This document shows positions 4,096 through 57,677 of a stretch of DNA of 64,000 nt, in pieces (positions within the stretch are counted from its first letter, which is position 1; every line of letters starts with the position of its first letter). Source of the DNA: Planctomycetota bacterium (GTDB lineage Bacteria; Planctomycetota; PUPC01; DSUN01). The notes under the pieces were generated by a model, which worked only from the letters and a program-made list of their open reading frames with translations, made no database searches and had not been told where the DNA came from. The position numbers and the translations under genes are program-made. The stretch covers positions 2,560-66,559 of the forward strand of contig DAOOIT010000021.1 in NCBI GenBank assembly GCA_035384565.1, in the 5' to 3' direction.

Positions 4096-4174
4096 GGGTT
4101 CGGGGATTGGTGTTCGGTGTTGGGGTACGGAACAGGAGATGCCCTGCCGCCTGATCCTGGCTGCTGGTCTCCTC

Positions 4175-4202
4175 TCACGTATCCCGCATTACGCATCACG
4201 AA
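4175..4202. promoter_or_regulatory. Heptamer (TCACGYA)n array, 4 units, 10 nt upstream of the URO-D-family gene start
   Basis: tcacgta tcccgca ttacgca tcacgaa. Confidence 0.45.
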
Positions 4203-6316: not shown

Positions 6317-6817
6317 CTACTCCAGCAGCTCGCCGCGGATGGTGACGGCGGCGCGGACGATGGCCTGCTTGTCCTGGTCGTAGAGCAGGTAGACCTTGAG
6401 CCAGCGGGTCACGAGGTGCGAGTGGGTGGGCAGCGTGTCCACCGTGCCCTCGAGCACGAGCTGCCGCGCCTCGCGGTGGTATGCCGCGGGCGCGAAGACG
6501 ACCTTGTGGAGGGGAGGCACGTGCTTGTACTGCTCCATCGGCTTCTTCGCCCAGCGCGAGAGTTCGCGCGCACGGTCGGCGGTGAGGAGCGGGGCGATGC
6601 CGGGGCGTTTCGCCGCCCAGTCCGCGAGGGCCTTGGCCGTCTCCTCCGCGAATTCGCCGGGCTTGCACGGCGAGCCGCCGTCGAAGCCGGGGATCGGCTC
6701 CATCTCGGGCACCAGGGCCATGGGAATGGCCGGCGCGGGCGACGTGATGGCCTTGAGCCGCGCACAGCCGCCGACGACCAGCGCGGCCAGGGCGAACGCC
6801 AGGGGCAGTTGCTTCAC
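6317..6817 (-). CDS. Hypothetical lipoprotein
   Basis: GTG at 6817 with GAGGAGG upstream. Signal peptide plus lipobox VKQLPLAFALAALVVGGC. The upstream part of the long track ORF was rejected. Confidence 0.4.
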   Translation of the reverse strand: MKQLPLAFALAALVVGGCARLKAITSPAPAIPMALVPEMEPIPGFDGGSPCKPGEFAEETAKALADWAAKRPGIAPLLTADRARELSRWAKKPMEQYKHVPPLHKVVFAPAAYHREARQLVLEGTVDTLPTHSHLVTRWLKVYLLYDQDKQAIVRAAVTIRGELLE

Positions 6818-8619: not shown

Positions 8620-9654
8620 ATGCGAAGAGTGGCAGCGATGGACGGGCGCGGCCAGTTCTCGGTCATCGAAGAGGCCATTCCCGACCCGAAGCCGGGGCAG
8701 GTGCTCATCGAGGTCGCCGCCTCGCTCGTCAGCCCGGGCACCGAGCTGGGCGGCGTGCCGGCCCGGCGGAAGAACCCCAGCGACTCCCCGCCGCGGCCCT
8801 TCGGCTACCAGAACGCGGGCGTGGTGATCCGGCTGGGCGAGGGGGTCACGCGGTTCCGCGTGGGCGACCGCGTGGCGACCATGGGCGGCGGCTACGCGCT
8901 GCACGCCAGCCACTCGGTGGCGCCGGTGAACCTCACGGTGCCCATCCCCGAGGGCGTGTCGTTCGAGGAGGCCGCCTTCTGCCACCTGGCCGCCACCGCG
9001 CTCCACTGCCTCCGCCGCGCCGAGCCGCAGTTCGGCGAGAACTTCGCCGTCAGCGGCCTCGGCCTCGTGGGCCTCCTGTGCGTGCAATTCGCGAAGCTCA
9101 GCGGCACACACGTGGCCGGCCTCGACCGCTTCCCCAAGCGGCTGGCCCTCGCGCGGGCGACGGGGGCCGACGCCGCCTTCAATGTGGCCGAGGCCGACCC
9201 CGTGCCGCGCGTGCGGGAGTTCTGCCGCGGCCACGGCCTCGACTGCGGGATCCTCGCCTTCGGCGGCGAGGCGACCGAGGCGGCGAGGCAGCTCTACGAG
9301 ATGATGCTGCCCGCGCCCGACGGCCATCGCTGGGGCCGCCTCGTCGCCGTGGGCGGCGCCCGCGTCACCCTCGGCCTCGCCGCCGACCTGGGGAACGTGG
9401 ACATCCGTTCCTCCGCCCGCCCCGGCCCCGGCTACCACGACGACGCCTGGGAACACGGCGCCGACTACCCGCCCGTCTTCGTGCCCTGGACCACCCAGCG
9501 GAACCTCGAGGAGAGCCTGCGCGCCATCGCCGAGGGCGCGCTGCGCGTCAAGCCGCTCATCACCGACGTCGTGCCCCTCGCCCAGGCCCCCGCCGCCTGC
9601 GAGAAGCTCGTCTCCTCGCCCGGCGAGGCCATCGGCGTCATCCTGAAGCCGTGA
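8620..9654 (+). CDS. Zinc-binding alcohol dehydrogenase / MDR-family oxidoreductase
   Basis: ATG at 8620 with AAGGAGG upstream. VSGLGLVGLL Rossmann motif and GroES-like N-domain (PGQVLIEVAASLVSPGTEL). Confidence 0.7.
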   Translation: MRRVAAMDGRGQFSVIEEAIPDPKPGQVLIEVAASLVSPGTELGGVPARRKNPSDSPPRPFGYQNAGVVIRLGEGVTRFRVGDRVATMGGGYALHASHSVAPVNLTVPIPEGVSFEEAAFCHLAATALHCLRRAEPQFGENFAVSGLGLVGLLCVQFAKLSGTHVAGLDRFPKRLALARATGADAAFNVAEADPVPRVREFCRGHGLDCGILAFGGEATEAARQLYEMMLPAPDGHRWGRLVAVGGARVTLGLAADLGNVDIRSSARPGPGYHDDAWEHGADYPPVFVPWTTQRNLEESLRAIAEGALRVKPLITDVVPLAQAPAACEKLVSSPGEAIGVILKP

Positions 9655-9677
9655 GGCGTGACGCGTGATGCGTGATA
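9649..9677. promoter_or_regulatory. Heptamer array (reverse orientation) spanning the adh stop and the nucleoside-hydrolase start
   Basis: ccgtgaggcgtgacgcgtgatgcgtgata is the reverse complement of tatcacgca tcacgcg tcacgcc tcacgg. Confidence 0.45.
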
Positions 9678-10672
9678 GGGCAAAGAGCTATCTGGCCGCT
9701 GCGCTCCTGGCGTGCTGCGCCGCCCTCCCCGCCCTCGCGGCCGAGCCCGTGAAGATCATCTTCGACACCGACATGGACAGCGATTGCGACGACGCGGCGG
9801 CGCTGGCCCTGCTCCACGCGCTCGCCGACAACGGCGAGGCCGAAATCCTCGCGACGATGTGCTCGGCCACCCACCCGTTCTCGGCCCCCTGCACCGACGC
9901 CATCAACACCTACTATGGCCGGCCCAACCTGCCCATCGGCGTGCCCAAGGGCCCCCCCGCGCACAAGCCCCAGTCGCGCTACGCCCAACGCATCGCCGAG
10001 GAGTTCCCCAACGACGTGCCCCGCGGCGACGCCACGCCCGATGCCACCCGGCTCTACCGCCAGCTCCTCGCCGCCCAGCCCGACCAGAGCGTGGTGATCG
10101 TGACCGTGGGCGACGTGACGAACCTGCGCCACCTCGTCGAATCGCCGCCCGACGCGTTCTCGCCCCTCCCCGGCCGCGACCTCGCCGCGCGCAAGGTGAA
10201 GCACTGGGTCTGCATGGGCAGCCGCTACCCGGCCGACCTCGACCCCGGGCGCTGGGGCAACTTCAAGCCGGACCCCGAATCCACCGTGCGCGCCATCGCC
10301 GCCTGGCCCACGCTCATCACGTTCACGGGCGGCGGCGAATTCGCCGACTCGCTGGCCACGGGCAAGCGCCTGGCCGAGCTGCCGAGGGACAACCCCGTGC
10401 GCCGCGTCTACGAGCTGTACTTCGGGGGCGAGGTGAAGAACCGCCACAGCGCCGACCCCATCGCGGTGCTCGTGGCCGTGCGCGGCACGGGCGCGCCGTG
10501 GAAGCTCGTGACCGAAGGCCACAATCACATCTTCCCCAACGGCACGCATGAGTGGCGCGAGGCCCCGAACAATCCCCTCCACCAGTACATCGCCGCCCTG
10601 GCCGAGGGCTTCGAGGCGCGCAAAGTGGCGGCTGAGATGGAGGCGCTGATGGTCAGGCCACGGCCCCGCTGA
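9665..10672 (+). CDS. Secreted nucleoside hydrolase-like protein (IU-NH family)
   Basis: Signal peptide followed by KIIFDTDMDSDCDDAAALALLHAL, a DXDXXXDD-type motif. The start overlaps a heptamer repeat array. Confidence 0.5.
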   Translation: MMRDRAKSYLAAALLACCAALPALAAEPVKIIFDTDMDSDCDDAAALALLHALADNGEAEILATMCSATHPFSAPCTDAINTYYGRPNLPIGVPKGPPAHKPQSRYAQRIAEEFPNDVPRGDATPDATRLYRQLLAAQPDQSVVIVTVGDVTNLRHLVESPPDAFSPLPGRDLAARKVKHWVCMGSRYPADLDPGRWGNFKPDPESTVRAIAAWPTLITFTGGGEFADSLATGKRLAELPRDNPVRRVYELYFGGEVKNRHSADPIAVLVAVRGTGAPWKLVTEGHNHIFPNGTHEWREAPNNPLHQYIAALAEGFEARKVAAEMEALMVRPRPR

Positions 10673-11524: not shown

Positions 11525-11781
11525 AGGCTCAGCCTCCGATGGCTCGTGGGGCGGGCGGGGCGCTTCGCGGGCGGGTCTCGGGGCCTGCCGGCGTGGGGGG
11601 ATTGTACACGATAGGTTTCCCCCGTTTCAAGTCGCCGCGAGAGGCGGGGGGTGGACCGGAATTGTCGGCAGGGTTGTTCTCTGCGACGCCTGAAGGACTC
11701 GCCTGGGATGGCCCAGGGCAAAGCCTTGATCTCTGCCCACATCCTCGGTGCCAGTAGCCCGCGAACGCGGGCGACCGGGCC

Positions 11782-11960
11782 GTAGCCCAGGGCGACCGAA
11801 GGAAGCCCTGGGACCGGGCGTCCCCGCCCGTCCAAGCCCCCGAAGGGGGCGTTTCACGCCCCTTGAATCGCCCCCCTTCGGGGGCTCTACGCTGCGGGGC
11901 GTTTTCCCAGGGCTCCCTTCGGTCGCCCTGGGCTACGCCCAAACGCCCCCTTCGGGGGCT
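11782..11960. repeat. Nested inverted-repeat / multi-hairpin cluster
   Basis: Perfect 21-bp inverted repeat gtagcccagggcgaccgaagg (11782-11802) with ccttcggtcgccctgggctac (11916-11936). Inner 10-bp inverted repeat agccctggga/tcccagggct. Three GC mini-hairpins: gcccccgaagggggcg (11837), ccccccttcgggggct (11872), gcccccttcgggggct (11945). Confidence 0.6.
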
Positions 11961-14197: not shown

Positions 14198-14230
14198 AAA
14201 CTCCCGCGGGTTCGCAACCCGCGGGAGGCT
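14198..14230. repeat. REP-like GC hairpin, copy 1 (ctcccgcggg..cccgcgggag)
   Basis: Perfect stem flanking ttcgcaa loop, 6 nt after the stop at 14192. Member of a 7-copy family. Confidence 0.6.
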
Positions 14231-14529
14231 GCTGGGCGCCCGAGCGTGGTTCCGGCCACTGCAACCTGGTTCGCGGCCGGAGTAGTGAGCTGCAAAGTTA
14301 CATACGCCCCCGGGGCGCGCAGAAGTGGTAGAGTCTGGCGAGTCTGTGCGAGACTGAGCCGGACGGTCGAGAATCGGCGATTCTCGAGTCCGGAGGGCGG
14401 CGAGTGTGGGTTTCTCCGAGCCGGATGGCCGAGAATGGCCAAACGGGGAGCCGGGTGGAACCGAATCGAGAGCGCGGCGTCTAACATCCAGTGCAATTGT
14501 GGCCCTCTCACGCGGGAAGGAGTCCTCTG

Positions 14530-19380: not shown

Positions 19381-19408
19381 CCGTGATGCGTGATACGTGA
19401 TGCGTGAG
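19381..19408. promoter_or_regulatory. Heptamer (TCACGYA)n array, reverse orientation, 4 units
   Basis: ccgtgatgcgtgatacgtgatgcgtgag. Forms an inverted pair with the array at 19444-19494. Confidence 0.5.
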
Positions 19409-19443
19409 AAGAGAGAAGCCGACCGGCAGCTTTCCGGGGGTTC

Positions 19444-19494
19444 TCACGTATCACGTATCACGTATCACGCATTACGCATCACGCGCCTGAGCGA
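19444..19494. promoter_or_regulatory. Heptamer (TCACGYA)n array, 6-7 units
   Basis: tcacgta tcacgta tcacgta tcacgca ttacgca tcacgcg, ending 37 nt upstream of the GH38 ATG. Confidence 0.5.
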
Positions 19495-19530
19495 AGGCAC
19501 GGTCCCCAACCGAGAAGGAGCTTGCAGAAC

Positions 19531-22661
<3,131 letters not shown>

Positions 22662-22665
<4 letters not shown>

Positions 22666-23414: not shown

Positions 23415-23449
23415 CCCCTCCCGCGGGCCAACGCGGCCCGCGGGAGGCC
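23415..23449. repeat. REP-like GC hairpin, copy 2
   Basis: cccctcccgcgggcc aacg cggcccgcgggaggcc. Confidence 0.5.
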
Positions 23450-24085: not shown

Positions 24086-24118
24086 AACCTCCCGCGGGGT
24101 GGCAACCCGCGGGAGGTT
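24086..24118. repeat. REP-like GC hairpin, copy 3, between convergent gene ends
   Basis: aacctcccgcgggg tggc aacccgcgggaggtt followed by tctc. Lies between the EF-hand stop (24075) and the E2 stop (24121). Confidence 0.6.
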
Positions 24119-24120
24119 TC

Positions 24121-25473
24121 TCAGGCCTGGCCCTCGAGCAGCGCGTCGGGGGCCTCGAGCAGGTCCTTGAGGCTCTTGAGGAATCGGGCGGCCATGGCGC
24201 CCTCGATGATGCGGTGGTCGCACGAGAGTGTGAGCCGCATCACGCGGGCGATGCAGATGGCGTCGCCGCGCACTACTGTCGCCGGCAACGCCGATGCCAC
24301 GCCCAGCGTGATGGCCGACGGCGGGTTGATGATCGGCTCGAAGTGCTCGACGTCGAACATCCCCAGGTTGGTGATCGTGAGGGTGGGGTGTCTGCGCTCG
24401 TCGGCCGAGAGTTTGCCTCCGCGCGCCTTCTCGACCAGCGGCTTCGTGCGCTCGACGATCTCCTTGAGTGAGAAAGCCTGCGCGCCGCGCAGCACGGCCA
24501 CGGTGAGGCCCTGATCGGTGTCCACCGCGATGCCCAGGTTGATGTTCTTCCACCGGATGATCTTGCCGCGGTCGTAGCTGCGGTTCACGAGGGGGTTGGC
24601 CTGGACGGCCTTCACGACGGCGAGCATGAGCAGGTGGGTCACGGTGGCCCCGCCGAACTTCTCTTTCAACTCGTCTTTCATCGCTAGCAGCTTCGTCACG
24701 TCGGCCCCGCGGGTCATGTAGAAGTGCGGGATGACGTGCTTGGAGGCCGTGACCGTGCGGGCCTGGGTCTTGAGGCGATAGGGCGCGTCCTCGACATCGG
24801 CCTCCTCGGGCGCCACGACGATGGGGGGCAGTTCCTCGTCGGGCGAGGGGGGGATGACTGGGGTTGGTGGGGCGGCCTTCAGGCCGGAGGGAGACGGGCT
24901 GAAGCCCGCACTACGAACGGCAGCCTCGACGTCGGCCGCCACGATCCGCCCGCCCGGGCCGCTGCCCTTGAGCGTCGCAATGTCCACGCCCTTCTGCTGG
25001 GCGAGCAGGCGGGCGTAGGGAGAGATGGCGATACGGCCGGGCGTGATGCGCGAAGCGCGATGCGTGAGAGGAGGGGAAGCCATTGCGGGGGCCTGCGGCG
25101 CTTCGCGGAGATGGGTTGGGGTTGGTTGCGCGACGCGCGACGCGGGACGCGGGACAGGAGGCGGCGCCTCGGGTTCGGGCGCTTCGGCCGCGGTGGCTTG
25201 TGCCGCTCGCGGCTCGTGGCTCGCGGCGGGGGCCTCGGCCTCGGTGGCGATCAGGGCGATGGCCTCGCCCACGGCCGCCTCCTCGCCCGCCGGCCGCAGA
25301 ATCCTCGACACCGTGCCGCTCGTGAAGCACTCCAGCTCCAGCGTGGCCTTGTCGGATTCCACCTCGGCGAGCACGTCGCCCTCGCTCACGGTGTCGCCTT
25401 CCTTGACCTTCCAGGCGACGACCTGGCCCGAAGTCATGCTGTCAGATAACTTGGGCATGGTGACTTGGTACAT
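24121..25473 (-). CDS. Dihydrolipoamide acyltransferase E2 component of a pyruvate/2-oxoacid dehydrogenase complex
   Basis: ATG at 25473 with GGAGGA upstream. Lipoyl domain (ESDKATLELE), an Ala/Pro-rich linker, a peripheral-subunit-binding domain (ISPYARLLAQQKGVDIATLKGSGPGGRI) and a catalytic domain ending with the DHR motif (LSCDHRIIEGAMAARF). Confidence 0.85.
   Translation of the reverse strand: MYQVTMPKLSDSMTSGQVVAWKVKEGDTVSEGDVLAEVESDKATLELECFTSGTVSRILRPAGEEAAVGEAIALIATEAEAPAASHEPRAAQATAAEAPEPEAPPPVPRPASRVAQPTPTHLREAPQAPAMASPPLTHRASRITPGRIAISPYARLLAQQKGVDIATLKGSGPGGRIVAADVEAAVRSAGFSPSPSGLKAAPPTPVIPPSPDEELPPIVVAPEEADVEDAPYRLKTQARTVTASKHVIPHFYMTRGADVTKLLAMKDELKEKFGGATVTHLLMLAVVKAVQANPLVNRSYDRGKIIRWKNINLGIAVDTDQGLTVAVLRGAQAFSLKEIVERTKPLVEKARGGKLSADERRHPTLTITNLGMFDVEHFEPIINPPSAITLGVASALPATVVRGDAICIARVMRLTLSCDHRIIEGAMAARFLKSLKDLLEAPDALLEGQA
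24873..24916. repeat. Family-3 palindromic element copy embedded in-frame in the E2 interdomain linker
   Basis: ggccttcaggccggagggagacgggctgaagcccgcactac (reverse complement of the 18949-19006 element, inner spacer shortened). Encodes AVRSAGFSPSPSGLKAA in the linker. Confidence 0.5.
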
Positions 25474-27786: not shown

Positions 27787-27818
27787 AACCTCCCGCAGGT
27801 TTGGAACCCGCGGGAGGT
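27787..27818. repeat. REP-like GC hairpin, copy 4
   Basis: aacctcccgcagg tttgg aacccgcgggaggt, 5 nt downstream of the DsbD stop. Confidence 0.6.
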
Positions 27819-27822
27819 CGGG

Positions 27823-29559
27823 TCAGTTCACCCGCCTGAGAACCTCGGCGAACTTCTCCGGGTCCTTGGCCTCATCGTAGCCCAGCTTCTTCACCAGCCT
27901 GCCGCCGGAGTCGAGCACCACCACGAGGGGCGGCCCGGGCACGTCGAAGCGCTTCACCAGCTCTGCATTGCGGCTGGTCTCCACGTCAATCTTCAGCGCG
28001 CGGAAGCGCTGGAGCTCGGCTCGCACCACGGGGTCGGCAAACGTCGTGCGATCGAGCACCTTGCAGTAGCCGCACCATTCGGCCGTGAAGTCGAGCACGA
28101 TGGGCTTGCCCGCGGCCAGCGCCTCTTTGAACAAGCCTGGGTCGCCGTGCACGAACGCATCGGGCTGCGTCGCGCCGGGGACGGTGCCCCCGCTGGGCCG
28201 CGGCTCCACGTCGAGCCCGACGAGCACACACCAGCCGGCCGTCGCCAGCGCGGCGATGCCCAGCAGCCGCTTCACCCGAGCGCCCGCGCCGCTCTCGGGC
28301 GTCAGGGAGTCCAGCCCGCCCAGGAATACCGTGCCCGCGACGAGCGCGGCCGCGCTGCCGAGCCAGAAGGCCGTCTCGCCCACCACGGGCCGCAGGAAGT
28401 ACACGGCCGCCCACAGCAGCACGAAGCCGATCAGGTGCTTCACCCACTCCGTCCACGCGCCGGCCTTCGGCAGAAGGCCCGAGGACACTCCCGCCACGAT
28501 GAGCAGCACGCCCATGCCCCAGGCGAGCGCGAACATCATGGCCGCCCCGAGCAGGCGATGGCCCGTCGTGGCGATCTCGGTGAGCACGGCCAGCAGCGGC
28601 CCCGCCACGCACGGCCCCGCGGCCACGCCGGTCACCAGCCCGAGCAGCAGCACGCCGAGGAGCCCCTTCTTGCGCCCCGCCACCTTGTCGCCCAGGCCGC
28701 CCAGGAACGCCGGGGCCTGGATGGTCACCACGTCGAACATCCCGAGGGCGAACAGCACGAACACCGCGGCAATGCCGACCAGCACGTAGGGCGACTGAAG
28801 CGCCAGCCGCACCGAAGCGCCCAGCGCCGCCACCAGCGCGCCCAGCACGGCGTACGTGAGTGCGATGCCCAGCACGTAGACCGAGGAGAGCAGGACGGCT
28901 TTGAGGCGCGACGCCTGCTTCTGCGCGCCAATCACCGCCACGGTGATCGGGATCATCGGGTAGACGCACGGCGTGAGGCCCAGGGCCAGGCCATAGACGA
29001 ACGCCTTGGCGATCTGCCGGAGGACGAACAGCCAGCCTGCCTCCGGCACGTCCTCGACCATCGGGGCGGCCGCCGCGGCACCCGTCGCCGCGCTCGCCCC
29101 GATGGCAACCTCGTGCACCAGCGGATGCTTCGCCGGGCGGAAGCACACCGTATCGGTGCAGCCCTGGTAGCTCACGGTGCCCCTGAGGAGCGCGGTTTCC
29201 CCTGCGGCGCCCGTCACCTGGAACTTCACCACAATGGCCACCGTGCCCTCGTAGGCCTCCAGCGTGGCGCCGGGCTCGCCCGAGATCAGGTCGGGAATGA
29301 GCTTGCCCTTCGGCCTCATGACCTCTCTTTCGGCGGCCCCCTTCAGCTCGTCCCACTGGAACTTGATGGAGTCCCTGTAGAGATGCACGTCGCCGCGGAG
29401 CTTGAACGTTACCGTCAGGGCCAACTCGCCGCCGGCAGACGCCTCGGCGGGCGCGAGGGCGCTGCTCACCTGGAACGGCTGTTCCTCGAAGTCCTCGGCA
29501 CCCAGGGCGACCAGGGCCAGCGCAAGCATCCAGGCGCCGGACGTCAATCTAGCGGTCAT
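27823..29559 (-). CDS. dsbD: Thiol:disulfide interchange protein DsbD (secreted N-terminal domain, CcdA-like membrane core, C-terminal thioredoxin)
   Basis: ATG at 29559 with GGAGG upstream. N-terminal secreted domain after the signal peptide, membrane core with the CVYPMIP and GPCVAGP motifs, and a C-terminal WCGYC thioredoxin domain. Confidence 0.8.
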
Positions 29560-38672: not shown

Positions 38673-41600
38673 TTACTTCCCAAACGCGAACGGGCACGAG
38701 CGGGTGGGGTCGGAGAACATGAGGCTCGCGGGCCAGTTCACCTTGTAGTCCTGCTCGTTGCCCCAGGCGTTGATGCACGAGAGGGAAACGCCGACGCGGA
38801 CGACCTCGCCCGGGGCGCCCGTGGTCGGAAGGATGTCCTTGCCGCCGCGCCCGGCGATGCCGCCGACGAGCTTCACCTCGGCGAAGGGGATGCGGGCCAT
38901 GACGGCATAGCCGGGCCGGCCCCTGAACGAGGCGCCCGTGACGGCCCCCAAGTGCCGCCCGAGGGGATGGCTCGACAGGTCGTCGAGCTTCGCCGCCCAG
39001 ATGCAGTCGCGCGGCAGGGCGTAGTTGGCCGCCCACTCCTTGCCCTCGCGGTTGTGGTGGCGGTGCTTGAAGAGCGCGGGAGAGCCGTCGCTTGTCATCC
39101 CCAAAGTAAACTGCTCTTCTTCCAGCCACAGTTCCACGCAGTCGAACTGCCACATGGCGTTGCCCTTCGGGTCATCGAAATGCATGGTGTCGTCGGCGAC
39201 GAGGAACATGGCATAGAGGCTGGCCCCGTCGTGGGCGATTGCGCCGATGGCTGTGCCTGCGCGAAAGGTCTGCCAGAGGTCGTCTGGCACGGACCTACGG
39301 AACCCAGGTGTAGGAAGCATAACGATTTGCGGCATGACGCCCGCGTTCTCCCAGGGAGCCCAGTCGCCGCTGGCTTTCAGCTCAGGCACCCTTGGGATGG
39401 TGAGGAGGCGCTCGACGGGCTTGCCTTGTGTTCGGTCAGGCAAGGGCGGCGGACCGGCTTGGGTGGCAGGATTGTTCCACGTGAAACGTATAACGCTACG
39501 CTCGATTGTGTCGGCACCCTCGACGCGCAGCCGGGCGAAACGCCCGATTGCGTCGTCTTCCACATAGGCCCCAGGCTTGCCGTCGGGGCGCAGGTAGGCG
39601 TGGACGCCGTAGCGGAGGTCCACGAAGCCGATGCTGTAGTTGCACGGCCAGCTCCAGTTGCCCGTGGCGAGGCGCAGGCCGTCGGCGTTGAAGAGGTCCA
39701 CCTGTCCGCCGAAGCTCTTGGCGGCCATGATCCAGGCGTTCTTCCCGTCGTTGACGGCGCTGACCGACATGTAGTTGCCGCCCGAGCTGAGGGCGAACCA
39801 GAGGGGCGTGCCGTCGGGCGTGGAGCGGCCCACGCCCGTGCCGTCCGCGCCCCACCCGGGCACCATCTTGTTGTAGAGGTCGGTCACGGCCAGGTAGTAG
39901 ATGTCGCCCGTCGTGCGGTCGGCGGTGATGGCGGCATTGCACTTCATCTTGCGGGGCGAGGGGTCCTCCTTGGGGCCGAGGGTGACGGGGTGGTCGAAGT
40001 CGAAGGTCGGGTTGCCCTGGCCATCGAGGCCCTGGAAGGGGATGCGCTTGAACTCGAGGCTGTAGTGCCCGCCGGCAATGATGTCGCCGCCCTTGGTGAA
40101 GGCGATGGTGGTGTAGGCCCAGCCGCCGAGGGCCTTGTGGCGGTTGTCGTAGTCGAGGGCGGTGCGGGGCTTCAGCGGGTCGCTCACGTCAAGGAGCAAC
40201 AGGTCGCCCTTGCCGTGGCGGCTGAAGTAGAAGATGAACGGCCTGCCGCCGAGGACGACCGCCCCGTGGGGCGAGCCGGGCGAGAGGCTCACCGGTTTCT
40301 TCTCACCGGGCACCTCCACGCTGCCGCGGGGGCTCTCGACCAGCCACTCCCAGGCCCCTGTCTTCGGGTCAACGCGGAAGATGCCCGGCCAGCAGTAGAC
40401 GTATTCGGGCTGGGTCGGGTGGACGACCGCGGTGTCCATGAAGTTGCTCAGGGCCTCAAAGGCCACGGCGCCGCTCTCGGGCCACAGGCAGCGGAGGCGT
40501 GCGTGCTCGCACAGCAGCAACCGCCCGTCGGGCGTGATGGCCGCGTCGCGCGGGTCGCTGAAGAGGTCGGACGCGACGGGTGTCCACTCCCCCTTCGGCC
40601 GCTCGCGGCCCAGGGTGCGGATGATCTTGCCGCTCGCGGCGTCGAGCCAGGCGACCTTGGCCGCCTTGCGGTCAATGACGGCGAGCCGCCCCGCGCCGGC
40701 GGCGAGATACTGCGGTGTCTCGAGGCCCGTCGCGTAACGCTGGCCAACCGAGCCATCGGGTCTGAGCGAGACAACCTCCTTTGTGGGCGGGACGTCCCCG
40801 TCCCGCGAATCGCGGCGTGTGGACACGCCGCCCACAGGGCCTGCCAAGGCCCACAGGGCGCCCTTCTCATCCGCCGCCACGTCGCCGGCGCCGGGCAGGG
40901 GCCAATCGCGCTTCTTCTGGCCGGAAGCGAGATCAATAGAGCGAATGAGACTGAGGTCGGGGATGCCCACGAAGGCGGTCTGGCCGATGACGGCCACGCC
41001 CGCGACGCCGCCCGGCGCCTTCTCGCCTGGGGCGAAGACGGGATAGCTGTCGGCCCCGTTGGCCATCTTCGCCCGCTCGCAGGAGGGCGTGAGGCGGATC
41101 AGCTTCGTCCCCTCGCCCTTGCCCACCGCGCCGATGAAGCCTTCCACAGGAGTTGTGGGCGGGATGTCCTCCTCCCGCGTCTTTGTGGGCGGGACGTCCC
41201 CGTCCCGCGTATCGCGGCGTGGAGACACGCCGCCCACAATGCCCGACACGCCGCCCACGAGGGCGAGCCCCCCGGTGAAGTCTTTCTCGGCGAAGTTGGT
41301 GGCCTGGATCGGTTGGCCGGACGATGCGTAGCGTCGGAGCGGGTAGCCCGCCTCGTCATAGATAGTGGTGATGACGAAGCCGCCATCGGGCAGCGCCACC
41401 ACGCGGTCGGCATTGTCGCAGTGGTAGGCCCCCATCGCCGCCCCGTTGTCGCCCATTGCCCCGTCGTCCACGATCCGCACGTCGTGGCTCACGCTCCGCA
41501 CCTCGTACTCGCCCGCGGGCGCCGGCTGCCCGAGGTCATCCAGTCCATCCCAGTAGAGATCGGCCACGCGAGGGGCGTCCGCAAGCAGTGTCCGCACGAG

Positions 41601-42726: not shown

Positions 42727-42759
42727 AACCTCCCGCAGGTTCCAAACCTGCGGGAGGTT
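42727..42759. repeat. REP-like GC hairpin, copy 5, between the P2 stop and the P1 start
   Basis: aacctcccgcaggtt ccaa aacctgcgggaggtt is perfectly symmetric. Confidence 0.6.
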
Positions 42760-42764
42760 GGGGC

Positions 42765-45700
42765 CTACGGCTTGAAGATCAGTTCGCCCCAGTTGCGGGG
42801 CTCGAGCTTGAGTTCGAAGACCTCGTCGTTGACGATGCCGGTGGCCTGGTTGCTCCAGTGGGTGCGCAGCACGGTGTCTTTGCCCGCCGGGTCGCCGTGG
42901 GTGACGCCGAAGTCGCCGCGAAGGACCAACCCATCCCTTGGCTTGATGCCCAGTGCGGCCAGGGGAATGGCGGCCTGGACGGTGTAGCCCTTCCTGTCGC
43001 CGTGGGGCTTGACGGTGATCTTGGCATCGCCGATGACCGTGACGCTCTCGACCGTGTAGCCGTCGCGGACGACGCCGGAGTAGAACTTCTTGGGGGCCTT
43101 GTCGGCGGACTTCGGGCGGAAGAGGACGGCGGTGGGCGTGCCCTTGAAGGGGCCGATGGAGAGGCGCAGATCGCCGAGGACGGCTTCGGTCCGCTTCGGG
43201 TCGGCGGCGGGGTCGGTGCCGAGCTGGAAGTCCACGGTGTCGCCGCCGCAATAGAGGAACTCGGGGGCCTCGGCGCCGTTGACCCAGGGGGTGGCGTCCT
43301 TGACGTCCCAGGCGAGATAGAGGTTCGCGTCGTCCCACGCCGCGGCGGTGCGGACGGCGGCGTCATCCTGCTTCTTGTAGGCGGCGACCTCGGCGCCCTG
43401 GGTGTCCTTGTTGAAGTCGCCGGTGAAGGTGGGGGTAAGTTTCTTGATGGTGAGTCGTCGGGTGCCGACGGCCTCCTGGAGGTATTTCTCGCGGAGGGTG
43501 CGTGCTTGAGCGACTTCGGCGTCGGTGATGGTGAGGCGGCGGGGGTCTTTGCGGCCGAGGAGGCCGGGCAGGCCGCCGCGGCGGCCGGGCTCGAGGCGCT
43601 TCACGGTGTCGAGGCCGACGACGCGGATGTTCCAGAAGCCGGTCTTGCCGGCCTGAAGGTAGAGCTGGCCGTCGGGCGTGGCGGCGATGGAGCCGCCGAA
43701 GTCCTCGCCGCCCATGCCGGGCGGCACGTTGTCGAGGATGGCGCCGGGCTTGGCCTCGTCGGGGAAACGCATCTTCATCGGGTCGCCCTGGAAGAGGCGG
43801 GTGAGGTAGAAGCCCTCGCCGGTGAGGATGTGCCATTCGCCGCAGTTGGTGGGGATGACCCAGAGGTTGCCGATGGGCTCGGGGAGCCTGGCGGCGCCGC
43901 AGGGGCCGTAGGAGCCGCGAATCATGCCGACCTCGGGCGGCACGGCACGGTGGGAGCCGTGGACGCCGTTGAAGTTGTCGGGATAGCGCCAGATTTCCTG
44001 GCCCGTGGCGATATGGCCGCACTGGAACCAGGTCATGTCCACCCCATACTCGCCGCCCTTGAGCACGAGCGTGCCGTCGGCGGAGCCGAGGCCGGCGAGG
44101 GGCATCTTCGTGGGCTTGGCGAGGTCGTACTTCGGGGCGCCGCAGGGGGTGAAGCCGGCGACCTTGAACTGCTTGTCGCCGGAGTAGAGCGTGAGGTCGG
44201 GGGTCATGTTCATATACCAGCCGCTGAAGCGCAGTTCGCCGTCCACGCCCGTGATTTCGCCGGGCTGGCGCGCGCCGTCGCCGTTCTCGTCGGCCCAGAG
44301 CATCGTCCTGGCTGGCTTGACGTTCTGGCCGTGGCCGGTGGTGGGAATCTCCTTGCCGTCCTTGTCGGCGTAGAAGACGACGGTGCGGAGCCTCCAGTCG
44401 GTGTCGCCAAGGCGTTCGTAGACTTGGAGCGGGCCGAGGTTGTAGCTCCAGTTGGGTGCCGTGGCGAGGTAGAGACGCCCGTTGGCGCCGAGGGCGAAGC
44501 GCGCGTTGCTCATGCCCTCGCGGGTGATGGTGGCCAGGCACTTGTCGCGGCCGGTCTTGGGGTCGAGGCGCCACTCGCACGAGTGGCCGACCATGACGAG
44601 GGGGTCGAGGGGGTTGATGGCGCCGCCGAGGGCGCCGTAGGCGGTGGGGCCGAAGAACTCGCGGACGAGGGCGCCCGTCTCGGTGTTCCACACACTCACG
44701 CGCTTGGGCTTGTCGTCGGCCTCCATCGCCCAGAGCTGGCCTTTGGCATCCACGGTGAGCGCCTTGACGAACCGCATCCCGTCGGGCTGCCAGGGGCCCA
44801 AGAGCGCCCGCCCGCCTTTGCGGCCGATGGCCTTCAGCAGTTTGCCCTCGGAATTGTAGACGAGCACCTGGTTGTCGGGGTCGCCGACGGCGACGTAGGC
44901 ATTCCCCTTGGCGTCGAGGGCGATGGCGTTTGCACCCTGGAGGTTCTCGATGAAGGGCTTGGCCTCGCCGGTCTCGGGGTTGGTGGCGAGCACGGACTTC
45001 CAGCCCGAAACAACGAAGAGGACGCGGGATCTGTCGGACTTGTCCGACCCGTCCGACTTGTCGGGCCCCGCCGCCTCGATGTCCACGGGCGCGGGCACGG
45101 CGAGCTTCTTGAGGAGGGCGCCGCTCTTGCCGTCGAGGACGAGCACGGTGTCGCGCTTGGTGAAGCCGACGTAGACCCTGCCGCCGCGGGCGTGGAGGCA
45201 ACTCGCGCGCTCGCCCTTGTCGAGCGCAATGCCCGCGAGCTTGGCGGCATCGAGGTCGGTGGAGCCGCTGCCGGCCCAGTCGGTGAAGCCGCCGGTCTGG
45301 GCGTCGGCGCGGAAGAGCAAGCCGTCCCAGTTCATCGCGTAGACCGTCCCGCCGTCCACCGTGACGAGTTCGGCGCCGCTCATTCCGCCGCGGCTGAGGC
45401 GCCATTGGACGTTGCCGCCGAGGTCGCAGGCGACGAGGGCCTTGCCGGCCTCGGCGCCGGACCAGCCGAGATAGACCTTGTCTTTGTCGGCGTCGCAGGC
45501 GAAGGGCACGCCGTGGTCGCCGCCCCAGTTGGTCTTGCCGCTCGGGCCGTCCCAGGGCGCCGAGCCGCCGTTGCAGGCCCAGCCGACCAGGCGCAGGCCG
45601 ATGCCCTTGTGCCACAGGGCATCCCACGTGTAGGTGCCGGCGGGCACGGGCTGGCCCGGCTGCCGCCAGTTGGGGGTGGTCAAGCCGTCCCACTTGACGG

Positions 45701-53333: not shown

Positions 53334-56300
53334 TCACTTCTCCTTCTCGAATTCGAGCGTCCCCCACAAGTTCGGCTGGAGGCGGGCCTCGGAGGGGACG
53401 TCGGACATGATCTTGGTGTTCTGGTTGGCCCAGTAGACGCGGTCCACGGCGCGGGTGCCGGTCTGGTCGGAGAGGACTCTGCCCACATCACCACGGATGA
53501 TCGGGGTCTTCGCGGGGTCGAGGTGGAGGGCGGCGAGCGGCACGGCGGCCTCGAGGACGAAGCGGTCGCCCTTCCGCTCGACGGCGACCTTCGCCTCCGC
53601 GAGGATGGCGACGCGGTCCATGTAGAGGGTGCGCCAGGGCGAGGAAAAGGGGAGCCGGGCCTCCTTCGGTGTGCCAGGGACGACGTAGTCGTAGAGGATG
53701 GCGGCGGGCCTGCCGCCGACCATCGTGAAGCTCAGGCGGATATCGCCCTCGGCCGCGTCGGAGCGCTTCGGGTCGAGGCCGGCCCGCGTCTCCAGCATCA
53801 CGTCCACCACATCGCCGGTCTTGAAGGCCTCGAGGAAGTCGTCGGCCTTCGCGGCGTTCTGGAAGACCGCGCGGTCGTCCTTGCCCTCGAAGAGGACGTA
53901 GAGGTGGGCGTCGTCGTAGCCGAGGGCGAAGCCGTCGCCAAAGCGCTCCTTCGGCCAATCGTCGGGCTTTCCATCCACCGCGACGCCCTGGAGGCGGCGA
54001 ACGGTCTGGCGTCTGGGCTGGGCAACGGCGAGGGCGCGTTGCTGGCGCAGGCGCTCGGCCGCGAGGAAATGCTCCTTCGTGACCGTGAACTCGCCGCCCG
54101 CGATGCGGCGGATCCCGTCGAGGCCGCGAAGCTCGACGACCGAGCAATGGGGCTGGCCGACGACGTAGAGGAACTTGTGGGCCTCGCGGCGCGGGGAGAA
54201 GAGACCGCCTGAAGGCGGGACCACGAGCGAGCGAACCTTCTGGAAGGTGCCGCCGAAGTGCTCGTCGCCGAGCGAAACCTGGTTCATCAGGGCATCGGAG
54301 GGCGGCGTGTCCATCCGCCACGAGAGGCCCCGCCGCACGTCGCGGAACACGCGGTCAATGTAGAGGCCGTCGGCGGTGAAGAGGTAGGTCGCGCCGAGGT
54401 TGCTGTTGAGGCAGATGACCTCGCCGACCTCCTGGTTGACCCAGGCGGAGCCGAAGAAGCGGGTGGGCGCGATGAGTACGCCCGGCTCGCTGCCGAGGGC
54501 GCCCGTGTCGTGTCCCGCGTGGAGGCCGGGCCAGAGGTTCTTGTAGCGCCAGCGGATCCGGCCGTCGGGGGCCATGCTGGTGACGTAGTGGTCGAGGCTG
54601 ATGGCGTTGCCCTCGCGGTCGGTGAAGACGGCGTCGGCGGCGTGCCGGCCCTCGAAGGTGTGGAAGGCCGTGGGCAGGCGCCAGACGGGATAGCCCTCTC
54701 TCGTGAGCCGCTCGACGCGGAAGAAGGCGATGCCCGCGACGCCGTAGTGGCCGTCGCTGAGGGCGACCTCGAAGTCCTCGTTCATGCGGAACTGCCACGT
54801 GGCGCCTGCGCGGTCGGCGACCTTCTCGCCGAGCATGAGCTTGCCGAATTGCACCTCGTCGCGCTGCACCTTGCCGTCGGCGTTGGCATCGGTCCAGGCG
54901 AAGATCGCGTGGTCGGCAGGCACGTCGAAGCGCTTGCGCAGCCACTCGGGCACGGTGCCGAGGGCGGCGACGGGGCGGACGAAGCCCCCTTGGGCCTCGC
55001 GGGGCAGGGACGCCCCGCCCACCGGGTCAACGTAGACCCAGAGCGTGGTGTTGCTGCCGTTGGCCCAGCCCTGCCAGCTTGTGAGGAAGAGCGTGCTCGT
55101 GCGGCGGAAGAGCGACCGCTGCTCGCGGCGAAAGGGATAGGAGGGGTAGCTGCCGAAGCGGTCGTAGCGGTCGTCGTCGCTCCGCCAGAAGAGATGCGTG
55201 AGGCGAATGGCGCCCGTCCGGGGGTCGCGGCGGAACTCTTTGCCGTGGTAGAAGAAGTGGTTCTCGTCGGCGGGGTCCATCTCGCCGCCGCCGCCGTACA
55301 TCGGCGGGCCGAGCACCTGGTTGATGCAGCGGCCGGCCAGGTCCCACACGCTCGTGCGCTTGAGGTCCTCACTGAATTCACAAACCCAGACGTTGCCCTT
55401 GACGTCCACCTCGACGCCCGAGGGGCTTTCCAGGTTGTCGGGGTCGAAGGCGCCCACACGGTGCTTGCCCGGCTTGCCGATGGCGCGGAGCGGCTTGCCG
55501 TCGCGGGAGAAGACCTTCACCTGGTGCACGGGGTCCATCTCGCCCACGTAGAAGCAGCCTGCCTCGTCCACGGCCAGCCCGAGCGGATTCGTGAGGCCGG
55601 TCACGACGGGCCTCACGTCGCCCGTCTGGCGATGGATGAGGACCACACGCGAGCCGCTCACGGCAGCCAGATGGTCGGCGTCGTAGGGGCGGATGCGGCC
55701 GGGCTTCTCGAGGGCGATCTCCTTCACGACCGTCATCTGCTCGTGGTCGAGGAGCTTCCAAGCGATGTTCCAGGCGAAGCCGGCGGGCCGGGCGGCGAGG
55801 TTCTTCGAGAGGTCCAGCACGAGGACGACGTTCTTCGCGCGGTCGGCGAGCCAGGCGCGGTCGCCGGCGACGGCGAGGCCCTGGATATCGGCCTTCTCGT
55901 CCTTCGCCAGGTCGCGGCCGAGCAGGCGGCGGCTGGCCTTGGTCGTGCGGTGGACCTGGATCATCACGATCTTGTCCTTCACCCAGCCGCCCTGCTCGAC
56001 GTAGTAGATGAAGTCGCCGTCGGCGGCCAGCACACGCGGGCAGGCCAGCCAGATGCGGCCCGAGCCCCAGAGTTTCTTCATGTCCAGGTCGGCCTCGAGC
56101 AGCGCGTGGCCCGCTTCGCAGAAGGTGCCGGCCCACATGGTGGGCGGCGTGTCCCCACGCCGCGTGTCGCGGGACGGGGATGTCCCGCCCACAACGGTGC
56201 CCACCACATCCTGCGGCGGCACGTGGTCGGCCAGCCAGCCGCCGGTCGTGTCGGCCGTGATCCAGGCCAGCCCGTGCTTCTTGAGCGGGTAGTAGGAGAA

Positions 56301-57677
56301 CAGGTAGTGGAGCGACAGCGGCGGGTGCCACAGCCCCCGCCAGCGGTAGCGGCCGGGCGGGGCGACTTTCGCCGCGTCGGGCGACGGCTCGTGGAAGAAG
56401 TGGTTCGGCCGCTCGTACGGCGGCCAGTAGTCCTCCAGCGTCCGCAGGTCCCACCAGGCCGTGTGCCGTCCCTTCGGGAAGCTTTCGCCGGACACGAGGT
56501 TCTCGATGACGCGGCCCTTGTCATCGAGTATCTGGATGGTGGCCAAGCCGCCCTGCGGCAGGTCGAACGTGATGGGCACGATGCCCTCGGGCGCCGCGCT
56601 GGGCTTCGCGAGGCGTGTGGGGGCGGGGCGGTCGGCGAGGTCCTCGAACACGACGAGTTCGCCGATGGAGACCACGGTGGGGTCGGCCCCTTCGCCGCCG
56701 GCGGCGAGCTCCTTCGTGGTGCCTGCGATGGCCAGGAAGCGCAGGGCGCGCGTTTCGACCGTCTGGCCGAAGTCGCAATAGGCCTCCCAGAAGAGCGGCG
56801 GGCGCCAGGGCTTACGGGTCGTCAGCTTGCCGATGGTCTCCCACCCCTCGTGGTAACCTCCCGCAGGTTTGGAGTCTGCGGGAGGCTGGACCCAGCGCTG
56901 GACGAGGATTTCGGCGAAGCCGGGCTGGTGGGCGCCGATGAAGGCCGCGCAGCCGCGCATCGGGCGCGGCGCGCCCCAGTCGAGCACGATCCACTCGGGC
57001 CTCTCGGGCGAAAGCGGCTCCAGGCGCTCCCCGCTCGACCAGTTGCTGTGGCCCACCGCGCCGTTGAGGAGCACGGCGGGGTCATTGAGCTGCGCGTCGG
57101 GCGCGAAGCCGCGCGAGCGCGGCCCGCTCGAACTCACAAAGAGGTCGGCCAGCGGCGCCACGTTCACGTATCGCCCCGCCAGCATCGTGGCGAAGGCCAG
57201 CTCGGCGCGGAACTTGCCGCTGCTGTCGGGCGACATCGGGCCGCTGAGCCGCACCGCCTTCGTCACCACGCCCGGCGGCAGGGGCACGACGCGCAACTCG
57301 TGCGACTCGGAGCCAGGATACGGCGCCTCGGCCCAGTTCCCGTCCTTCAGCGGCTCTGCCGCTGCGTCGGGCTTCAGGTAGCTCACGCGCCACTTGCCAT
57401 AGGCCAGCACGGTGCCGACCGGCACCGGCTGCTTGAGCGCAATGACGAAGTGCGCGTCGCCTCCCTCGGCCGTCGCCTCCGTGCGCCAGACGTCGTGGCC
57501 GATGGCCTCGGCCCGCAGAACGCCCTTGTGCGCCGCCACGCGGCCGGGCAAGGCATAGCTCCCCTCGGCGTCCGGCACCAGAACCTCCCGCAGGCTCCGA
57601 ACCTGCGGGAGGTCCGGCCCGCTCCACGCGAAGTGCATCGCCACACAGGCCATCAGAGAGACAAGGCGTCTGGGCAT
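53334..57677 (-). CDS. Giant secreted protein P4 (1447 aa) sharing the C-terminal CBM9/DOMON-like module with P1-P3
   Basis: ATG at 57677 with GAGGAAGAG upstream. C-terminus DGKPDDWPK...DDAHLYVLFEG...ARLQPNLWGTLEF. Carries one family-2 element and two REP-like hairpins in-frame. Confidence 0.55.
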   Translation of the reverse strand: MPRRLVSLMACVAMHFAWSGPDLPQVRSLREVLVPDAEGSYALPGRVAAHKGVLRAEAIGHDVWRTEATAEGGDAHFVIALKQPVPVGTVLAYGKWRVSYLKPDAAAEPLKDGNWAEAPYPGSESHELRVVPLPPGVVTKAVRLSGPMSPDSSGKFRAELAFATMLAGRYVNVAPLADLFVSSSGPRSRGFAPDAQLNDPAVLLNGAVGHSNWSSGERLEPLSPERPEWIVLDWGAPRPMRGCAAFIGAHQPGFAEILVQRWVQPPADSKPAGGYHEGWETIGKLTTRKPWRPPLFWEAYCDFGQTVETRALRFLAIAGTTKELAAGGEGADPTVVSIGELVVFEDLADRPAPTRLAKPSAAPEGIVPITFDLPQGGLATIQILDDKGRVIENLVSGESFPKGRHTAWWDLRTLEDYWPPYERPNHFFHEPSPDAAKVAPPGRYRWRGLWHPPLSLHYLFSYYPLKKHGLAWITADTTGGWLADHVPPQDVVGTVVGGTSPSRDTRRGDTPPTMWAGTFCEAGHALLEADLDMKKLWGSGRIWLACPRVLAADGDFIYYVEQGGWVKDKIVMIQVHRTTKASRRLLGRDLAKDEKADIQGLAVAGDRAWLADRAKNVVLVLDLSKNLAARPAGFAWNIAWKLLDHEQMTVVKEIALEKPGRIRPYDADHLAAVSGSRVVLIHRQTGDVRPVVTGLTNPLGLAVDEAGCFYVGEMDPVHQVKVFSRDGKPLRAIGKPGKHRVGAFDPDNLESPSGVEVDVKGNVWVCEFSEDLKRTSVWDLAGRCINQVLGPPMYGGGGEMDPADENHFFYHGKEFRRDPRTGAIRLTHLFWRSDDDRYDRFGSYPSYPFRREQRSLFRRTSTLFLTSWQGWANGSNTTLWVYVDPVGGASLPREAQGGFVRPVAALGTVPEWLRKRFDVPADHAIFAWTDANADGKVQRDEVQFGKLMLGEKVADRAGATWQFRMNEDFEVALSDGHYGVAGIAFFRVERLTREGYPVWRLPTAFHTFEGRHAADAVFTDREGNAISLDHYVTSMAPDGRIRWRYKNLWPGLHAGHDTGALGSEPGVLIAPTRFFGSAWVNQEVGEVICLNSNLGATYLFTADGLYIDRVFRDVRRGLSWRMDTPPSDALMNQVSLGDEHFGGTFQKVRSLVVPPSGGLFSPRREAHKFLYVVGQPHCSVVELRGLDGIRRIAGGEFTVTKEHFLAAERLRQQRALAVAQPRRQTVRRLQGVAVDGKPDDWPKERFGDGFALGYDDAHLYVLFEGKDDRAVFQNAAKADDFLEAFKTGDVVDVMLETRAGLDPKRSDAAEGDIRLSFTMVGGRPAAILYDYVVPGTPKEARLPFSSPWRTLYMDRVAILAEAKVAVERKGDRFVLEAAVPLAALHLDPAKTPIIRGDVGRVLSDQTGTRAVDRVYWANQNTKIMSDVPSEARLQPNLWGTLEFEKEK
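56138..56193. repeat. Family-2 55-bp palindromic element, opposite orientation, in-frame in P4
   Basis: tggtgggcggcgtgtccccacgccgcgtgtcgcgggacggggatgtcccgcccaca. Encodes VVGGTSPSRDTRRGDTPPTM. Confidence 0.6.
56855..56885. repeat. REP-like GC hairpin, copy 6, inside the P4 CDS
   Basis: aacctcccgcaggtt tggagt ctgcgggagg. Encodes ...QPPADSKPAGGY... Confidence 0.55.
57582..57613. repeat. REP-like GC hairpin, copy 7, inside the P4 CDS N-terminus
   Basis: aacctcccgcagg ctccg aacctgcgggaggt. Encodes DLPQVRSLREV, a different frame from copy 6. Confidence 0.55.

Follow-up and report, generated by a model that had tools for sequence, protein, structure and literature searches.

A 57-bp double hairpin of REP type read in one frame within unrelated genes of uncultured Planctomycetota

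The GTAG- and CGTC-tagged superfamilies of repetitive extragenic palindromic (REP) sequences were defined by Di Nocera, De Gregorio and Rocco in 2013 (PMC3733652), with a stem-loop criterion of a G+C-rich imperfect palindrome having a stem of 5–13 bp and a loop of 2–20 nt (PMC3733652 Table 1). The GTAG tag has the variants GYAG, GTRG and GTGG, the last being the main variant in one Opitutus terrae family, and tail-to-tail GTAG REP dimers lie 1–2 bp apart (PMC3733652); the concept of the REPIN (REP doublet forming hairpins), due to Bertels and Rainey 2011, is cited in the same paper. Intragenic units are a listed feature of the GTAG superfamily (PMC3733652 Table 1). In O. terrae, ∼70 intragenic REPs were described, many of them dimers of 15–24 codons and some with GTGG-tagged units, and the dimers contribute constant peptides such as VAGVADPGPGSASPA or VGPALAAGRE...PY to helicases, UvrA, glycoside hydrolases and other proteins (PMC3733652). 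The Rickettsia palindromic elements RPE-1 to RPE-10 (Ogata et al. 2000, 2002), as summarized in PMC10969869 and PMC3733652, are ∼100–150 bp, AT-rich and confined to Rickettsia and relatives; about half of the RPE-1 copies are genic according to the summary in PMC10969869, and two short ones, RPE-4 and RPE-6, are assigned to the CGTC-tagged rather than the GTAG superfamily (PMC3733652). Here, we describe a 57-bp double hairpin found in a 64-kb stretch of an uncultured Planctomycetota genome (GCA_035384565.1, contig DAOOIT010000021.1; the whole stretch is called the window below). With a probability of roughly 0.72, we read this element as a non-autonomous mobile repeat of REP type, namely a REPIN of the GTAG-tagged superfamily that is mobilized by a REP-associated tyrosine transposase (RAYT) and survives within genes in one phase.

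The window contains four full dimers and three partial units, all within long open reading frames (ORFs), and no further copy of the family was detected elsewhere in the window by nhmmer. The first full copy occupies site 2 of the giant protein P1 at 40782–40838 on the minus strand, where the 57-bp inserted unit consists of a 55-bp double hairpin (40782–40836) and 2 nt, and is translated on the coding (minus) strand as P-VGGVSTRRDSRDGDVPPT. The 55-mer matches exactly at 40782–40836, with 0 matches expected from 100 shuffles of the window. At site 1 of P1, the inner element of a nested cluster lies at 41184–41238 (minus strand; 52/55 identity, three mismatches) and reads VGGVSPRRDTRDGDVPPT. It is flanked at 41154–41183 (minus strand) by a complete single hairpin unit, an arm A variant reading KTREEDIPPT, which matches the left arm at 19/22 positions and the nhmmer model at positions 1–27 and is probably the right half of an older dimer. 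On the other flank, at 41239–41258 (minus strand), a truncated unit GTGGGCGGCGTGTC... reading VGGVSG is probably the left remnant of that dimer. The same architecture, VGGVSx followed by a full copy and xTRDxEVPPT, was also seen in three other loci (L007, L009 and L053). The full copy in P4, at 56139–56193 (minus strand), has the opposite DNA orientation, matches the reverse complement at 50/55 positions, reads VGGTSPSRDTRRGDTPPT and was also detected as two inverted-repeat pairs (I1 and I2); the orthologue in L019 has a copy at the same site, and the paralogues P1–P3 are gapped there. A single hairpin unit GTGGGCGGGGCGTCCCTGCCCCGC, i.e. a half copy reading VGGASLPRE, lies in P4 at 54993–55023 (minus strand) and shares its arm subtype with the left arm of the last copy. 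The latter is a divergent full copy (46/55 identity) at 21576–21630 on the plus strand in a GH38 α-mannosidase gene, which reads VGGASLPRVPRRGDTPPT and whose left hairpin has a G-C pair in place of A-T.

The host genes are P1 (38673–42698, minus strand; 1341 residues, with an N-terminal β-helix and then a β-propeller-like region), P4 (53334–57677, minus strand; 1447 residues, a paralogue of P2 and P3) and the GH38 α-mannosidase (19522–22665, plus strand; 1044 residues in the public call). Pfam confirmed both the GH38 assignment and the β-helix of P1, and the gene call for P1 was identical on four public contigs. An assembly artefact was considered and rejected because JGI and ENA metagenomes yielded the same insert-bearing gene in independent assemblies, the gene calls being the same. 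The element is ∼80% G+C, and the window is ∼70% G+C.

When folded, the element takes the form TGTGG (GCGGGACG TCCC CGTCCCGC) GAATC (GCGGCGTG TGGA CACGCCGC) CCACA, in which both hairpins have 8-bp stems and 4-nt loops and are closed together by the 5-bp stem TGTGG/CCACA. Arm A is thus GTGG-GCGGGACG-TCCC-CGTCCCGC and arm B is GTGG-GCGGCGTG-TSSA-CACGCCGC, with a 5-nt spacer between them. Read from either outer end, each half is a GTGG followed by a hairpin, so that the whole is an inverted, tail-to-tail pair of tagged stem-loops; the closing stem is formed by the GTGG heads together with one flanking base apiece. Every full copy folds in this way, with two hairpins separated by the spacer inside the closing stem, at minimum free energies of −22 to −24 kcal/mol compared with ∼−13 to −15 for dinucleotide shuffles (z of −3.1 to −5.5). 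Values for individual copies are −23.2 kcal/mol for P1 site 2 (shuffles −13.3), −24.2 for P1 site 1 (z of −5.5) and −22.7 for GH38. A single long palindrome and a cloverleaf of three small palindromes were both discarded after folding.

The terminal inverted repeats TTGTGGGCGG are perfect over 9 bp and extend to ∼11 bp in most copies, with T at position −2 in 77/106 and A at position +2 in 75/106. The flank consensus is R-T-T|GTGG...CCAC|A-A-Y, in which the flanks are inverted (TT...AA) rather than direct. A hairpin unit is preceded by GTGG in 249 cases, by GTAG in 22 and by another tetranucleotide in six; because none of the GTAG cases falls within the search pattern, which selected for GTGG, the tag is best written as GTRG. 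As a caveat to the tag criterion of the GTAG superfamily, the tags of the dimer pair with each other instead of staying unpaired. Almost all distinct public copies (106/108) are heterodimers of an A arm beginning GAC or GAT and a B arm beginning CGT, and 34 isolated single units were also found.

Base pairing is retained as the sequence varies. Across 92 distinct copies, 98.6% of cells are paired in one hairpin and 90% in the other, and changes on both sides were seen at three pairs of hairpin 1 and two pairs of hairpin 2. Pair 12–19, for example, is C-G in 61 sequences, U-A in 26 and G-C in one, and pair 11–20 is A-U in 85 and G-C in six. Double changes fill 36 cells compared with 10 ± 2 in column shuffles, with no slid register coming near; part of this signal reflects subfamily structure among related copies. 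The pattern shows that propagating variants keep their stem pairing.

A preliminary description of the window had reported a 55-bp palindromic element with perfect 9-bp terminal inverted repeats, and these repeats stand. Its coordinates hold exactly for 40782–40836; the second copy was off by one, the P4 and GH38 copies are now placed at 56139–56193 and 21576–21630, and the half copy at 54993–55023 had not been listed. The placement of all window copies within the P1, P4 and GH38 ORFs, with the translations given, agrees with our ORF translation and with public gene calls. The supposed internally palindromic core is replaced by two separate hairpins closed by a short stem. That the copies keep the frame is correct, but 55 is not a multiple of three and the inserted unit is the 57 bp of 40782–40838; likewise, the lack of intergenic copies is true of this window but not of the family.

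The clearest evidence of insertion comes from site 2 of P1, where the copy is present only in the window protein and is missing from 24 of 24 other aligned homologues, including those that are 78–82% identical. In the homologues, the sequence ...LWAIAG|KEVVSL... is gapped by exactly 19 residues. In DNA, the empty site is GGC|AAA (L135) or GGC|AGA (L136) and the filled site in the window is GGC-(57 nt)-AAG, with no duplicated flank. The inserted unit is therefore 57 bp, or 19 codons, without target-site duplication, and the inverted flank consensus likewise argues against such duplication. The mobile unit could be either TT plus 53 bp plus AA inserted after codon position 1, or 55 bp plus 2; the flank consensus R-T-T|...|A-A-Y favors the first.

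Site 1 of P1 is more changeable. It is empty in three orthologues (P0123, P0126 and P0127), has a single dimer in two (P0122 and P0129; net gain of 19 codons), has a dimer of another arm subtype, VGGGSVPREGEQEKTRGTEAPPT, in two more (P0124 and P0125), and in the window carries a dimer nested within an older dimer. The orthologue tree is an unresolved star, so that a single gain with losses cannot be told from repeated gains; the site turns over either way. A net gain of 19 codons was also seen between L029 and L037. The GH38 copy is shared by P0001–P0003 and absent from P0004–P0030, which include orthologues of 79–88% identity and all more distant ones.

Locus L136 was retrieved through a protein, and so without bias towards the repeat, and it carries its own insertions. 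By alignment, its rhamnosidase gene contains a monomer and a dimer (+26 residues relative to the window) that the window lacks, and it also has an intergenic GTAG-tagged copy. These L136-specific insertions indicate that the family has been active since these species diverged. Copies are shown to be gained and lost between species that are ∼82–86% identical in protein, and occupied sites are shown to attract further insertions, giving nested clusters. At ∼7581–7608 of L136, in the P2 orthologue, a single hairpin unit (VGGASLPR) replaces the DKDK turn of the window P2; this is the same β-hairpin turn that bears a full dimer in the paralogue P4, which suggests that equivalent structural positions are used recurrently.

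To follow the family beyond the window, copies were collected by an exact degenerate pattern for the full dimer, so that the counts that follow favor well-preserved copies. Among 185,579 species-representative genomes, 13 loci were found, in three Planctomycetota metagenome-assembled genomes and on one 2-kb contig binned as Vicinamibacterales; one of these assembled genomes has at least eight pattern-exact copies. Metagenome contigs gave more than 117 stretches among the matches listed, and de-duplication left a working set of 115 distinct copies. No copy was found in viral contigs by the exact-pattern scan, and no Rfam family matched, the only hit being a chance microRNA at E ∼1. Searches with nhmmer added only 13 near-full off-pattern copies and revealed few decayed ones. 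Peptide-profile searches returned two hits in a set of 5.8 billion proteins and six in 1.84 billion representatives, but a 20-residue motif cannot reach significance at such sizes and these searches provide no usable count or host range. One predicted protein, P0226 (280 residues), matches the 20-residue motif seven times and is probably an ORF called across a dense repeat array.

By an ORF and GC3 (G+C content at third codon positions) criterion, 84 of the 115 copies (at least 73%) are clearly coding. All 84 are read in the phase that gives VGG...PPT, with 0 in the other two phases, and their orientation relative to the gene is 46:38. An independent test based on codon periodicity of the flanks gave the same answer: all 65 copies with both flanks strongly coding are in the VGG...PPT phase. 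Isolated single units favor this phase by 17:2. The remaining ∼20–30 copies lie between genes or at gene ends, or their contigs show weak periodicity. On several contigs of 61–66% G+C, the dimer is nested inside two further inverted pairs of tagged hairpins, the outer hairpins of these intergenic clusters being GTGG-CACAGCCG-CCCT-CGGCTGTG and GTAA-CACTTCA...TGAAGTG. Such a layered cluster is typical of the REP class.

The surviving phase reads VGG[V/T]S..R..R.GD.PPT, a nearly charge-neutral peptide rich in Gly, Pro, Ser, Thr, Arg and Asp; ten residues are invariant in 82 copies (V2, G3, G4, S6, R9, R12, D15, P17, P18 and T19). The other phases would give CGRDVPVPR..AAWGHAAH and LWAGRPRPA.RGVGTRRPQ, which contain Cys, Trp and His and are strongly basic, and which are thus plausibly selected against. 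No frame of the element contains a stop codon. The hosts are mutually unrelated and include GH38, PD40 propellers, a GT4 glycosyltransferase, two sulfatases, an M20 peptidase, a cytochrome-c-peroxidase-like protein and the P1–P4 giants, which excludes spread by duplication of paralogues. The sulfatase ORF of L050, with a copy at 2429–2481, also contains six tandem 13-residue units PSPLPLGEGRVRV, an unrelated in-frame repeat.

Structure prediction places the inserts in loops. The AlphaFold2 model of GH38 has a mean pLDDT (predicted local distance difference test) of 90.6, and the insert (residues 683–700) corresponds to a coil at 684–701 between strands 677–683 and 702–705, with pLDDT below 50 at residues 689–698. 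For the propeller region of P1 (mean pLDDT 86.1), only four stretches fall below 50: 1–3 at the N terminus, 80–84, 156–182 and 295–308. The nested site, whose element residues are 152–186, matches the third of these, and site 2 (293–310) matches the fourth; both are modeled as coil between two strands. On these models, the inserts are predicted to form disordered loops between secondary-structure elements.

Since the anatomy matches GTAG REPs and REPINs and RAYT genes occur in related contigs, we infer that the 57-bp element is mobilized by a RAYT, a transposase of the HUH/Y1 class. Single-stranded copies would fold into the double hairpin, which would be cut and pasted in trans by the RAYT. 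With a length that is a multiple of three and no stop in any frame, an insertion never truncates a gene, and near self-complementarity yields similar peptides from both orientations. Copies landing in the other two phases would presumably be removed by selection, leaving the phase that encodes a benign disordered loop. Three RAYT genes were found in the 1.2 Mb fetched around copies, scoring 89.1, 85.9 and 78.7 bits against NF047646 (cutoff 80), two of which also match Pfam Y1_Tnp; a profile built from the three detected no further RAYTs among the ORFs of the same 1.2 Mb. All are on the minus strand: that at L028 3723–4613 has a GTAGGGACG/GTGGGGACG-type REP on either side, that at L124 529–1332 is bordered by inverted repeats of its own, ATGCGGTGCCAGGCACA, and by a duplicated 3′ segment, and that at L120 6721–7305 is flanked by CCCTCCCGAAGG hairpins.

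Other palindromes accompany the family. A second palindrome in the window, CCTCCCGCRGG-loop-CCYGCGGGAGG with a stem of ∼13–15 bp, is mostly intergenic and terminator-like, with copies at 14198–14240, 23417–23447, 24086–24128, 27787–27829, 42727–42769, 56855–56897 and 57582–57624, one of them between P1 and P2. The copy at 56855–56897 is in frame inside P4 (QPPADSKPAGG), where the loop differs in the L019 orthologue. Another lies within the first 32 codons of the P4 ORF, and the true start of P4 may be further downstream. Related hairpins, CCCTCCCGAAGGT...ACCTTCGGGAGGG, flank the L120 RAYT on both sides (6517–6702 and 7333–7515), and this second family is probably a REP with its own transposase. 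A classic GTAG-tagged REP inverted pair, GTAGCCCAGGGCGACCGAAGGAAGCCCTGGG, lies at 11778–11813 and 11905–11940 of the window (94% complementary, 91 nt apart), and its unit recurs in L028 at ∼5990–6030.

Compared with GTAG REPs and REPINs, the element shares a tetranucleotide head beside a G+C-rich stem-loop, inverted pairs a few bases apart as well as single units, compensated stem changes between subfamilies, a tendency to cluster and nest with other REP families, and the occurrence of RAYT genes, here in related contigs. It resembles the O. terrae intragenic dimers, which are 15–24 codons long, in lying inside many unrelated genes and in encoding constant peptides, which in O. terrae start with V-G/A and end with P-Y/A. 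It differs from the GTAG class in being nearly always a fixed A+B heterodimer of exactly 57 bp, and the clearly coding copies use a single frame whereas the O. terrae family GTAG-19 uses several (GTGVPPV, HGRDARAT and WHGRPAR). Neither GTGGGCGG nor VGG..PPT is listed in the supplement of PMC3733652; the sequence family is new, while intragenic REP dimers as such have already been described in O. terrae and Rickettsia. With RPEs the element has in common that selfish palindromic repeats occur in frame in unrelated genes, encode a conserved peptide and are compatible with the host fold, yet at 57 bp and ∼80% G+C in free-living Planctomycetota it is set apart from the RPE families by their descriptions.

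In behavior, then, the likeness to RPEs drawn in the preliminary description is borne out by empty orthologues, unrelated hosts, use of both orientations and low-confidence coils, although in anatomy, heterodimer structure and tag the closer relatives are the REP dimers or REPINs of the GTAG superfamily. Its suggestion that no equivalent was known for a high-GC genome does not survive the report of intragenic REPs in O. terrae, a high-GC bacterium of the Planctomycetes–Verrucomicrobia–Chlamydiae group (PMC3733652). The clean insertions of 18–19 codons that it expected from orthologue alignment were recovered as the exact 19-codon gap at P1 site 2 and the three empty orthologues at site 1, and the expected position in loops was seen in the models of both the P1 fragment and GH38. 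It had named two findings that would speak against insertion, namely distant orthologues sharing the peptide and confinement to one paralogous family: distant orthologues never carry the insert, and the hosts are unrelated. The census that it proposed gave the 84/115 clearly coding copies, the one phase and the 46:38 orientation ratio reported above.

Several observations weigh against a RAYT-mobilized REPIN surviving in one phase. Classical REPs are mostly extragenic, whereas at least 73% of the copies found here are genic, so that the extragenic predominance of the class is not seen. The coding-to-intergenic ratio, ∼84:31 or higher, exceeds what random insertion with survival of one frame in three would give, and this excess may owe something to target bias or to intergenic copies decaying faster; the exact pattern used for collection also selects well-preserved copies. 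All three RAYT genes adjoin other repeats, and none is flanked by the 57-bp family. The GH38 insert sits in a hypervariable linker with a net difference of only nine residues (+27 nt), so the GH38 pair does not define the boundaries of the element, which P1 site 2 does. Other filled and empty pairs differ by 48–69 nt or have diverged flanks, and thus not all of them give 57 bp.

Three other explanations have been weighed. The perfect 9-bp terminal inverted repeats, ∼11 bp in most copies, and the dispersal in both orientations of copies that are non-coding on their own would also suit a deletion derivative of an insertion sequence, with 9–11-bp ends TTGTGGGCGG moved by the DDE transposase of that insertion sequence, i.e. 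something like a MITE (miniature transposable element with inverted repeats). Bacterial MITEs that make in-frame fusions (ERIC, Nezha and QMITE; PMC10969869) are likewise short and non-autonomous, have inverted ends and on occasion lie within ORFs. However, MITEs have target-site duplications, lengths of 70–300 bp and an origin from DDE insertion sequences, none of which applies here: the clean empty and filled site shows no duplication, the flanks are inverted rather than direct, and 57 bp is below the range usual for bacterial MITEs (PMC3733652). Moreover, dispersed single hairpins with one end are common, which a two-ended DDE substrate does not explain, and no insertion sequence bounded by TTGTGGGCGG ends was seen in the 1.2 Mb fetched around copies. 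We regard this origin as highly improbable. Less probable still, and already close to refuted, is the idea that the repeat was selected as a peptide motif, such as an RGD-like loop or a linker, that recurs by duplication or convergence with the DNA similarity being secondary. Ten invariant residues, always in frame and exposed in loops, are what such selection would produce, but there are two different peptides, VGGVSPRRDTRDGDVPPT and VGGTSPSRDTRRGDTPPT, in about equal use, and these are the two strands of one DNA sequence. Third codon positions are as conserved as the others, and it is base pairing that covaries. In addition, non-coding copies exist nested in other hairpin repeats, the hosts include cytoplasmic as well as secreted enzymes, and presence among close orthologues is patchy.

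The remaining alternative concerns maintenance, in that the hairpins, however they first spread, might be retained for a host function. Acting in RNA, they might affect mRNA stability, RNase processing or ribosome pausing where very long secreted proteins are made; acting in DNA, they might control supercoiling or serve as hot spots for recombination that diversify loops. Identity over 18 orthologous pairs is 74% for the flanks, 94% for the pattern-free stem positions and 78% for the loop and spacer; loops thus diverge at about the rate of the flanks while stems hardly change. The GH38 copy is identical at 55/55 positions between the window and L112 with flanks at 82%, and the scarcity of decayed copies and the compensatory stem changes point the same way. 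Against this, both members of each pair were chosen by the exact pattern, which favors preserved copies, and stem positions already agree at 90% between unrelated copies (58% for loop and spacer), so that concerted evolution or re-insertion at hot spots explains the stems equally well. The greater likeness of orthologous loops and spacers than of those in random pairs indicates that orthologous copies share a history. P1 site 1 carries different subfamilies in different orthologues, the random orientation relative to the gene (46:38) argues against a strand-specific RNA role, and close orthologues do well without the insert. We therefore consider a host function unlikely. The stem conservation could reflect selection on the hairpin, gene conversion, hot-spot re-insertion or ascertainment, since both pair members had to match the pattern.

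Within the reading of the element as a RAYT-mobilized REPIN, a more speculative extension, to which we give about as little weight as to a host function, is that this lineage has become adapted to genes. Its 57-nt length, freedom from stops, codon-like composition and near self-complementarity would then have evolved to give benign loops, with stems under purifying selection or renewed at hot spots across species. If so, gene-adapted REPINs would keep supplying inserted and replaced loops to the large proteins with which these Planctomycetota degrade glycans, and to their large surface proteins.

Some features of the surrounding region were recorded alongside the family. Four paralogous proteins of 1300–1450 residues are clustered at 35927–57677 of the window, with CBM9, FlgD-Ig and β-propeller-like regions and, in P1, the N-terminal β-helix. 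Their neighbors are a GH78 rhamnosidase, a YdjC-family protein and a GFO/IDH/MocA oxidoreductase; the arrangement is syntenic in L136, and the cluster is likely a polysaccharide-degradation locus. The GH38 orthologues have other short inserts, in P0003 and P0004 (alignment columns 229–236) and in P0005 and P0007 (columns 563–596). One of these inserts, TTGKMPVPP, resembles the O. terrae GTAG-19 peptide GTGVPPV, and DKRPACR.DRKRDACGY is repeated two or three times; several repeat families appear to have added inserts to these proteins. Tandem heptamers CGTGATG/CGTGATA and their complement form an inverted pair just upstream of the GH38 start (19382–19483) and recur at 4168–4200, 9650–9681 and 25042–25160; PHSALRTPHS in GH38 and the variable block of its orthologues (SEIGNRKS and RFQIPDSKS) look like in-frame triplets of these heptamer repeats.

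In-frame palindromic DNA is usually taught as a Rickettsia curiosity, and its extension in 2013 to Opitutus and other bacteria is little known. In practical terms, inserts of this kind inflate or fragment protein alignments, create spurious conserved motifs in metagenomic protein clusters and mislead repeat and domain finders. The family described here provides a clear case from free-living, high-GC, uncultured Planctomycetota, with a single frame that is so far without exception, an exact 57-bp unit, and filled and empty orthologous sites within ∼15–20% protein divergence. It therefore offers a natural system for studying the tolerance of proteins to random 19-residue loops, the places within folds where such loops land and the maintenance of REP hairpins after insertion.

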